Shown here piece after piece: positions 17,726-39,471 of a DNA stretch of 46,502 bases. The stretch is taken from the sequence record DRR723986_4729; one strand, given 5' to 3'. The notes under the pieces are model-generated. The model was given only the letters and a program-made list of their open reading frames with translations, had not been told where the DNA came from and did not search any database. How positions within the stretch are numbered: the stretch's first letter is position 1; every line of letters starts with the position of its first letter. A program made the position numbers and the translations under genes.

Positions 17726-17884
17726 ATGCTTCTTAATTGCCGTGATTGCAGAGCTTTAGACAAGGAACACTACTTGATCAAAGTAAGAAAACTGCGAAGC
17801 AGATAGCTTGAGGACTTACCCATTCCAATCTCTTAACTATTTCCGATTTTCTTTTATTGTAACCAATGACTTCATTAAGAATGA

Positions 17885-18048
17885 ATATCCGCTAACCTGC
17901 CAGTAAGGTGGCAAAAGCAAGGTAGGATAAGTAAAACTTAATTGAGACCACTTCGGTTTACGGACACTTGTGCTGAGCGTAGCCGGAGTATCTGTCTTAC
18001 AGCCTGATAAGCAAAGAATTTATGGTGACTGGCATCTTTGCGGATAAT
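17885..18048 (+). repeat. Structured dispersed element, copy A (unknown ncRNA or MITE-like)
   Basis: Colinear blocks shared with the reverse complement of 31770-31900; terminal IR TATCCGC/GCGGATA; inner stem TGCCAGT/ACTGGCA. Confidence 0.8.
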
Positions 18049-18058
18049 GATAAAAATG

Positions 18059-30289: not shown

Positions 30290-30325
30290 ATGCCCCTGAA
30301 GATAATGTATTCAGGGGCATTTTTT
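30290..30325 (+). terminator. Intrinsic terminator between convergent genes
   Basis: ATGCCCCTGAA...TTCAGGGGCAT followed by a T tract. Confidence 0.8.
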
Positions 30326-31496
30326 ATTTGGAGGAGTCTATTGCTCTTTCCACATCTTGTATGATATCTTCGTAGTGCTCCAGACCCACGGATAGTCTTA
30401 CTAGTCCATCCGAGATCCCTACCTGAGCTCTTTCTTCAGTAGATAGTTTGCTATGCGTAGTCGATGCTGGATGCGTCACTATACTTCGGCTATCTCCAAG
30501 ATTTGCTGTAATGGAAATCATCTGAAGTTTGTCTATAAATCGCTGAGCACGTTGTACTCCGCCTTTCAGGTCAAGTGTGATCACACCGCCTCCCTGGCTC
30601 ATTTGCTTTTTAGCTACTTCGTATTGAGGGTGTGACTTCAAGAAAGGATATTTTACGGCTAGCAATTCAGAGTTGCCTTCAAAATATTCAGCAACTTTCA
30701 GCGCGTTACTACAGTGTCTGTCCATTCTTAAGCCTAGGGTTTCCATACTCTTGGCAAGAATCCAAGCATTGAATGGAGAAATGGCAGGACCTGTATGTCT
30801 GGCAAAAAACTGCACTTCTTTCATCAAGTCGGCTTTTCCTAAGATCAAACCTCCAAGTACTCTTCCTTGACCATCAATGTATTTCGTCGCACTGTGAGTC
30901 ACAATATGTGCACCCCACTTAGTTGGTTGCTGTAAGTATGGCGTTGCAAAGCAATTATCAACAACTAGGATTAGGTTGTGTGCAGCAGCGAATTTTCCAG
31001 CCCATTCCAAATCGATTATTTCCAAACCTGGATTGGATGGAGTTTCAATAAATAGCATTTTGGTATTGGGCTGTACGAGTTTTTCCCAGTTTAGATAATC
31101 TGAAATATCTCCGTAGGTAGAGGTTATCCCCCACTTCGGAAACACTTTAGTCAACAGCTGGTGCGTAGAACCAAATAGGGAACGGGCAGCTAGTACATGA
31201 TCTCCTTGCTGAAGCAATGCGGCAATACTTCCAAACATCGCAGCCATTCCTGATGCGGTTGCAAACCCATCTTCAGTTCCTTCCGCTGCACAAACTTTCT
31301 CAATGAGATCACTGGAGTTGGGGTTGGCATACCTAGAATAGATATTTCCTTCTTTTTCATCAGCAAAGGTGGCTCTGGCTTCTTCGGCAGAGTCAAATGT
31401 AAAGCTAGATGTAAGGTAAATCGGAGCAGAATGCTCTCTCTGGCTGGATTTGGAAGGGGAGATCCGTACAGAATTAGTTTCGAAATGCTTACTCAT
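30324..31496 (-). CDS. metZ: PLP-dependent trans-sulfuration enzyme, O-succinylhomoserine sulfhydrylase-like
   Basis: YSRYANP, SGMAA, ETPSNP, DNCFATP, HSATKYIDGQGR, NLGD; SAM riboswitch upstream. Confidence 0.85.
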   Translation of the reverse strand: MSKHFETNSVRISPSKSSQREHSAPIYLTSSFTFDSAEEARATFADEKEGNIYSRYANPNSSDLIEKVCAAEGTEDGFATASGMAAMFGSIAALLQQGDHVLAARSLFGSTHQLLTKVFPKWGITSTYGDISDYLNWEKLVQPNTKMLFIETPSNPGLEIIDLEWAGKFAAAHNLILVVDNCFATPYLQQPTKWGAHIVTHSATKYIDGQGRVLGGLILGKADLMKEVQFFARHTGPAISPFNAWILAKSMETLGLRMDRHCSNALKVAEYFEGNSELLAVKYPFLKSHPQYEVAKKQMSQGGGVITLDLKGGVQRAQRFIDKLQMISITANLGDSRSIVTHPASTTHSKLSTEERAQVGISDGLVRLSVGLEHYEDIIQDVERAIDSSK

Positions 31497-31599
31497 TTAT
31501 TGATCAGTTAATATTTTGACATGACTAATCAAGCAGATTTGAGAAAATCAAACCCAAAAGCGGTAAACGAACTAAAAGGGATTATTGTGAAGTAAGCCA

Positions 31600-31700
31600 A
31601 TCTATAGTTCCCGCAAAGGGTAGGATTTGGCACCGTTCTCCGTTTCGGGATGGTTGCCAGAGGGTCATAGAGCCTAATCTCTCGCCTCTTCTTTATAAAT
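31600..31700 (-). ncRNA. SAM-I riboswitch aptamer
   Basis: Minus strand ATTTATAAAGAAGAGGCGAGAGATTAGGCTCTATGACCCTCTGGCAACC...GGTGCCAAATCC...TATAGAT; GCAACC/GGTGC core; upstream of a Met biosynthesis gene. Confidence 0.92.
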
Positions 31701-31769
31701 CAGTTGCCTGAAGTGATGCAAAGAAAGACCTAGATTTGGGGAAATCCAAATCTTATTTAATCAATTATG

Positions 31770-31900
31770 ATTATCCGCAATGTTACCAGTCACCTGAGAA
31801 TCTTTGCTTATCAGGTTGGAAGATCGTTGACCGATGTCGGGTCTTAAATTTAACATTACTTACATTGCTTTTGCCACGTTACTGGTTGAAAAGCGGATAT
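31770..31900 (-). repeat. Structured dispersed element, copy B (unknown ncRNA or MITE-like)
   Basis: Reverse complement is colinear with 17885-18048; TATCCGC/GCGGATA, ACCAGT/ACTGGT and CCTGA/TCAGG stems. Confidence 0.8.
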
Positions 31901-31909
31901 GCATATTAA

Positions 31910-32470
31910 TCAATCATTAAATTGATTCATGGTGCGATCAATTCCTGTCGCACAAAAACTTAGGGTCATTTCTATCGCTTTATCCATCATGGTGGGTAAT
32001 TCAGCGAATTCATCTTGGGTGAATTTCCCTAACACAAAATCGACTTGTCTACCTTTAGGAAAATCGTCTCCAATTCCCATTCTCAACCTTGGGTAGTTTT
32101 GTCCTCCTGTAAGTTCTTCGATATTTTTCAAGCCATTATGACCAGCAGCACTTCCTTTGGGTTTCATTCGAAGTTTCCCGAAGGGAATGGCTACATCATC
32201 TACGATTACTAAGGTGTTTTCCTTTGGGATTTGTAGTTCTTTCATCCAGTAGTTCATTGCTTTACCACTAAGATTCATATAAGTGGTTGGTTTGATTAGG
32301 TGAATTGTTCTGCCTTTAAACTTGAATTCTGTTTTGAAGGCAAGACGATCACTTTTCCATGAGCATTGCTTCGCATCTGCAAGTCTATCCACGGTCAAAA
32401 ATCCAATGTTGTGCCTGGTAAGTTCGTATTCTGGCCCTATGTTCCCTAGGCCTATGATTAAGTATTTCAT
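31910..32470 (-). CDS. pth: Peptidyl-tRNA hydrolase
   Basis: [30 protein letters not shown]. Confidence 0.97.
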
Positions 32471-39398: not shown

Positions 39399-39471
39399 TT
39401 GGTCTACCAGGGCTCGAACCTGGACTCTTCTGAACCAAAATCAGACGTGTTGCCAGTTACACCATAGACCA
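39399..39471 (-). tRNA. tRNA-Gln (anticodon TTG), CCA not encoded
   Basis: Acceptor TGGTCTA/TAGACCA; anticodon arm TCTGA-TTTTGGT-TCAGA; T-arm CCAGG-TTCGAGC-CCTGG. Confidence 0.96.

Follow-up and report, generated by a model that had tools for sequence, protein, structure and literature searches.

Classical bacterial MITEs, such as Correia/NEMIS, RUP, ERIC and Nezha, are small, non-coding, multicopy elements of intergenic DNA that are bounded by terminal inverted repeats (TIRs), flanked by target-site duplications and mobilised in trans by the transposase of an IS. Several of them affect transcription or mRNA stability, and their parent IS families and duplication lengths are unlike those of the element described here. 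The IS1595 family, to which the present element leads, is divided by ISfinder into subgroups according to catalytic motif and end sequence. MITEs derived from IS1595-family elements have been published before: Table 4 of the paper concerned lists, for Haloquadratum walsbyi, a MITE of 165 bp with ISHwa6 (IS1595) as putative parent, an IR of 25, a DR of 8 and 7 copies (PMC3852290).

Here, we analyse a repeat that occurs in two inverted copies in a DNA stretch of 46,502 nucleotides (sequence record DRR723986_4729), the whole of which is called the window below. The initial annotation, made from the letters of the sequence, did not recognise the family and proposed two readings, namely a multicopy ncRNA or ribozyme whose structure and loop sequence are under selection, or a MITE-like element mobilised in trans. 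We consider it very probable (about 0.93) that both stretches are copies of a MITE that carries the ends of an IS1595-family IS and has been moved in trans by the DDE transposase of that IS. The second of the two proposed readings is thus sustained by TIRs, target-site duplications, numerous further copies, an empty site and an IS partner, whereas the first is unsupported by the folding, covariation and orientation analyses given below.

The two copies and their surroundings

Guided by the family alignment, we set the borders of both elements 2–5 nt further out than in the initial annotation. Copy A spans 173 bp on the plus strand (17880–18052). Its left end (17880–17904, plus strand) consists of a 13-bp TIR (17880–17892), a 7-nt spacer and a CCAGT box (17900–17904), and its right end (18028–18052, plus strand) mirrors this arrangement with an ACTGG box (18028–18032), a spacer and a 13-bp TIR (18040–18052). 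Copy B, on the minus strand, has a short central part and spans 140 bp (31766–31905). Copy A and the reverse complement of copy B can be aligned over their whole length at a mean column identity of 80%, and the ordered blocks that had been listed as common to the two are present in both. The length difference, correctly attributed from the outset to one inner part, is concentrated in a single central insert of 30-odd nt that makes up the bulk of it. Each end of each copy bears the motif TATCCGC-n7-CCAGT; its total of four in the window compares with an expectation of 0.08 and was reached by none of 100 shuffles. BLAST of copies A and B against the window returned no third copy.

The neighbouring genes had been correctly named as a TonB-dependent receptor gene, a transketolase-like pdhB and pth. 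Copy B was inserted 4 nt past the pth stop and before the terminator-like hairpin of that gene, which lies at 31732–31753 (minus strand). Because the element sits between stop and hairpin, pth transcripts are predicted to carry it in their 3' UTR. It is framed by a perfect 9-bp direct repeat, ATTGATTAA, upstream at 31906–31914 (minus strand), where it contains the pth stop TGA (31910–31912), and downstream at 31757–31765 (minus strand). The earlier statement that no clear target-site duplication is visible therefore does not hold for copy B, although it does for copy A, of which no duplication is left (3 of 8 positions). Copy A is at most 76% identical to other family copies, and its inverted repeats differ from the family consensus by two changes on the left and one on the right. 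With no remaining duplication and the most diverged ends, it must be regarded as an old copy.

Two annotated RNA features lie in the same part of the window. A SAM riboswitch (RF00162, 65.6 bits, E 3.6e-13) occupies 31599–31701 (minus strand), with copy B 65 nt upstream of it, and the gene downstream of the riboswitch encodes a PLP enzyme of Cys/Met metabolism (30324–31496, minus strand; PF01053, 7.8e-131). A tRNA gene (RF00005, 63.5 bits) is found at 39399–39471 (minus strand).

A multicopy family with duplicated targets

The counts for the family come from G001, the nearest genome compared, which has 91% of sampled 31-mers in common with the window. It carries copy A at the same site, 99% identical over 1.1 kb, and copy B at the same site, 100% identical. 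With copy B as the query, BLAST returned 52 matching pieces from this genome at 67–100% identity. The 13-mer of the 5' end occurs there 26 times exactly and 44 times with one mismatch, and that of the 3' end 35 times exactly (one of these occurrences being part of the 1,042-bp IS described below) and 38 times with one mismatch. With up to two mismatches allowed, the 3'-end 13-mer gave a total of 304 places compared with 65 for a reversed control. From these figures we estimate roughly 40–70 MITE copies in G001.

From the two window copies and 30 loci of G001 we extracted 34 elements, 30 of which could be delimited at both ends. Members of the family range from 126 to 197 bp (133–197 bp in the copies delimited at both ends), form about three sequence subfamilies and differ in length only in their central part. 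The MITE itself contains no ORF, and none of the 30 full-length copies whose context was examined falls within an ORF of 120 aa or more. By mechanical ORF calls, the flanking gene contexts of 30 copies are tandem in 14 cases, divergent in nine and convergent in six, with one left undetermined.

The consensus 13-bp TIRs, TATGTATATCCGC and GCGGATAATCATA, are complementary at 11 of 13 positions, and each is followed inwards by a 7-nt spacer and then by the CCAGT/ACTGG box. On the family alignment, the inner seven TIR positions pair in 93.6% of cells, and the box pairs in 26–28 of 29 copies. When the flanks were scanned register by register, identity rose to 67–83% only at the eight positions directly outside the TATG...CA(T/C)A ends, over a background of ~0.2–0.6. 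In this 8-bp register, 183 of 240 flank positions match, while shuffled pairings averaged 110 (sd 7.2) and none of 10,000 reached the observed value. Eight of the 30 copies have a perfect 8-bp duplication and 17 match at seven or more positions; the duplicated target sites are 89% A+T. One further locus (L012), left out of the count because its 3' anchor was misplaced, has by eye a perfect TTGTTTTT. Copy B scores only 3/8 in the strict register because its repeat is offset by 1 nt.

A comparison of orthologous loci, which had been suggested from the start, was carried out with G131, a sister species and the only other species of the genus compared. There, the site of copy B is empty: the flanks are 7 bp apart, compared with 154 bp in the window, the target occurs once (...AAAATCAAT... 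on the plus strand), and the pth stop and the terminator hairpin are adjacent. No copy of the MITE family was detected in G131 at E up to 1e-5. At the locus of copy A, this genome has a different and longer intergenic region (897 bp compared with 491 bp in the window), which does not represent a clean empty site.

Short intergenic multicopy repeats with inverted-repeat ends are also produced in another way, as REP/BIME-like palindromic elements spread by a RAYT (IS200/IS605-type), and two similar stretches could in principle stem from a chance old segmental duplication. REP elements, however, make no target-site duplications, whereas the 8-bp duplications found here are significant; the partner described in the next section has the same ends and encodes a DDE-type IS1595 transposase instead of a RAYT; and one chance duplication could not have produced dozens of copies. 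We accordingly give these explanations a close to negligible probability.

An autonomous partner with the same ends

The initial annotation had seen no transposase in the window and had advised a search for co-occurring transposase genes, and such genes were found in two genomes. In G079, a complete genome, a search with its own 152-bp MITE returned 41 pieces, of which 20 were nearly complete, with identities of 95% or more. A pair of short pieces that matched the ends only, on one strand and about 1 kb apart, led to a parent IS of 1,036 bp (C1:5414005-5415052) that has the MITE ends and a perfect 8-bp duplication, TTAATAAA. Its one ORF encodes a protein of 304 aa (P0001) that matches the Pfam families DDE_Tnp_IS1595 (PF12762, 1.3e-22) and Zn_ribbon_IS1595 (PF12760, 4.4e-6), as well as the NCBIfam model NF033547, 'IS1595 family transposase' (2.6e-57). 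G001 holds one intact IS of 1,042 bp (C1:668862-669779) with the same ends and the perfect 8-bp duplication TTAACTTT. Its single open frame of 310 aa, free of stops, encodes a protein 83% identical to P0001 that matches PF12762 at 2.7e-22; a zinc ribbon was not seen in it at the E 1e-5 cut-off. We infer from G001 that the window's own strain carries the IS as well.

In G079, the MITE and the resident IS are identical over all 26 nt compared at the 5' end and at 23 of the 24 nt compared at the 3' end. In G001, the common parts comprise the 13-bp repeat, the CCAGTAA box and the 3' ~25 nt. The 7-nt 5' spacer differs there, and the MITE may therefore have been mobilised by an IS not quite the same as the resident one. 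In both ISs, the stop codon of the transposase gene, TAA, lies inside the right inverted repeat, and the last ~25 nt of the MITE can on this ground be read as a fossil of the C-terminal coding end of a transposase. Between the ends, the MITE interior has only chance 8–10-mers in common with either parent IS.

Further loci were inspected around these elements. No transposase was found at the 5'-only fragment L027 or at the G079 loci L035 and L042. A second IS1595-family IS in G079 (1,054 bp; L065, 1383–2436) occurs at 17 full-length places; its transposase is 52% identical to P0001, and its ends (TATG..TATCCG) are arranged alike but differ in the subterminal box. As a source of the MITE interior it was rejected, as it has no similarity to it. 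At another G079 locus (L059, G079:C1:3510700-3512500), the MITE appears as 5' and 3' pieces ~590 bp apart, with an apparent insertion inside.

Occurrence in other genomes

A family search of 151 genomes gave matches in seven, belonging to six genera. In the genera other than that of G001, BLAST aligned only the 3' ~75 nt of the element; on inspection, the loci proved to have the ends and the CCAGT/ACTGG boxes of the family, with GGTCTTC/GGTCATC heptamers repeated in the centre. The MITE copies of G079 are flanked by perfect 8-bp duplications. A scan with the exact 3'-end pattern, restricted to one genome per species, gave at least 117 stretches. The 80 loci listed among them belong mostly to Algoriphagus species, and also to Echinicola and Belliella, with a few MAG contigs labelled Spirosoma fluviale, Limnohabitans, Planctomycetota, Bacteroidia or Cytophagales.

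These 80 loci contain 82 3' ends. For 51 of them the nearest 5' end lies at 138–195 bp, the size of the MITE, and for two it lies at 1,042 bp, the size of the IS. Two others, both in one locus (L141), have a 5' end at 410 and 559 bp, and the remaining 27 have none by the strict pattern, nine of these having less than 1,300 nt of upstream sequence. Among the 51 MITE-size elements in the loci listed, 26 have a perfect duplication (8/8) and 11 match at 7/8.

Some of these loci call for separate mention. The 3'-end motif was found on MAG contigs labelled Limnohabitans and Planctomycetota (L077, L088, L150 and L113), which could be due to mis-binning or to horizontal transfer; in one of them (L088), the two ends are separated by 1,042 bp, the size of the IS. 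In L141, the two 3' ends are 149 bp apart and have one 5' end in common, which may be a nested or tandem arrangement of MITEs.

Folding and covariation

The reading of the repeat as a multicopy structured ncRNA or ribozyme gene, in which selection would act on the multi-stem fold and on loop sequences, draws on several observations. Copy B folds better than shuffled sequences (z -2.66, matched by 4 of 200), some inner segments are conserved across genera, and the copy B fold has a covariation score of 0.069 on the family alignment compared with 0.055 for shuffles, a value reached by 3 of 500. The covariation excess, however, is largely due to a single A-U to U-A change (pair 28/45) in seven copies, mostly of one subfamily, and related sequences can raise such a score without any structure. 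The fold of copy A is unremarkable (z -1.43). An Rfam search, also advised initially, assigned neither copy to a family at the gathering score, and at E up to 10 only chance-level matches near copy A (best E 0.45) and none for copy B were returned.

The family alignment speaks against conserved inner stems. RNAalifold, applied to 29 aligned copies, kept eight pairs, all of them in the inverted repeats and with no compensatory change (consensus energy -2.64 kcal/mol, covariation term +0.11). When the full MFE structure of copy B was projected onto the family alignment for pair counting, the two inverted-repeat helices paired in 93.6% and 83.8% of cells, whereas the three inner helices paired in only 55–66%. 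Overall pairing equalled the shuffled mean (72.7% versus 72.6%) and was reached by 247 of 500 shuffles. The compensatory change that had been seen between the two copies at the base of the second stem (columns 21/158) dissolves in the larger sample: this pair is G-C in five copies, A-U in one and not a standard pair in 23 of 29.

Nor is there an orientation bias with respect to flanking genes; in the tandem contexts, five copies point the same way as their neighbours and nine the opposite way (two-sided binomial ~0.42). Target-site duplications, the empty site and the end sequences shared with an IS account for the copies without any RNA function. Neither the folding analyses, outside the inverted repeats, nor the orientation of the copies gives any support to the selection on RNA structure that had been inferred at first, and we regard an ncRNA or ribozyme gene as very improbable.

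The conserved inner heptamers

Inside the MITE lies a tandem run of one to four GGTCTTC/GGTCATC (GGTCWTC) heptamers followed by TTCC, as at 31815–31845 (minus strand) of the window or in columns ~104–124 of alignment A2. Over 85 copies from many species, conservation of the GGTCWTC-TTCC block amounts to at least 90%, whereas the interior around it has diverged; this figure is inflated because the sample was drawn with an exact 3'-end pattern and contains many recent, near-identical copies. Neither of the parent ISs has the block, nor does the second IS1595-family IS of G079. Recognition of the ends alone leaves its conservation unexplained.

One way to account for it is that the MITE has been domesticated or put to dual use, selection having preserved its interior (the heptamers, TTCC and the AAGCAAAG segment) for some further function. 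Such a function could be that of an accessory transposase site, of an array bound by a host protein or of an RNA-level effect on neighbouring genes. This would fit with the conservation of the inner block across genera while other parts of the interior drift, with the variable number of heptamers, with the lack of a counterpart in the parent ISs or the second G079 IS, and with the placement of copy B in the 3' UTR of pth, a short way upstream of a gene controlled by a SAM riboswitch. However, neither orientation bias nor structural covariation points to it, and common ancestry together with the need to remain competent for transposition could suffice to conserve the block. A second role of this kind therefore seems unlikely to us, and we return to the reading of the repeat as an IS1595-derived MITE.

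Mechanism and significance

In the mechanism that we propose, the IS1595-family transposase would bind the shared ~25-nt ends, that is, the terminal repeat and the subterminal box, make staggered 8-bp cuts at AT-rich intergenic targets and insert the MITE in trans. The 'stems' of the initial annotation are the inverted repeats of the transposon, the conserved 3' segment is in part a fossil of the C-terminal coding end of a transposase, and the central length variants probably arose by internal deletion or insertion. The initial annotation had itself noted that a match to an IS end would remove the novelty of the repeat, and the IS1595-family ends do so. As to its occurrence in Algoriphagus, a search of the full-text literature found no publication on such an element; supplementary files and the ISfinder catalogue lay outside the scope of that search, and an entry may exist.

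The recognition of this family is of value for annotation, as a repeat that resembles a structured RNA and is in fact a MITE can otherwise give rise to false ncRNA calls. The MITE is common in records of Algoriphagus and related Cyclobacteriaceae, the end motif being present in at least 117 stretches. Recent insertion polymorphisms could be useful for strain typing. The natural pairing of MITE and IS, with ~40–70 MITEs to one IS in G001, could also be used for studying how IS1595 transposases recognise ends.

The partner elements resemble the IS1595 family (PF12762, PF12760, NF033547) in their size of ~1 kb, their one ORF of ~304–310 aa, their short TIRs and their 8-bp duplications, whereas the MITE has no ORF and has only ~25 nt at each end in common with these ISs. 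As far as the tabulated data for the Haloquadratum MITE go, there is no evidence of sequence relatedness to the element described here. The former is archaeal, with a 25-bp IR and few copies, whereas the latter is bacterial, with 13-bp IRs plus a box and dozens of copies per genome. In kind, the tabulated entry for the IS1595 MITE of Haloquadratum walsbyi is like the element of the window, as both occur in multiple copies and both have an 8-bp duplication (PMC3852290).
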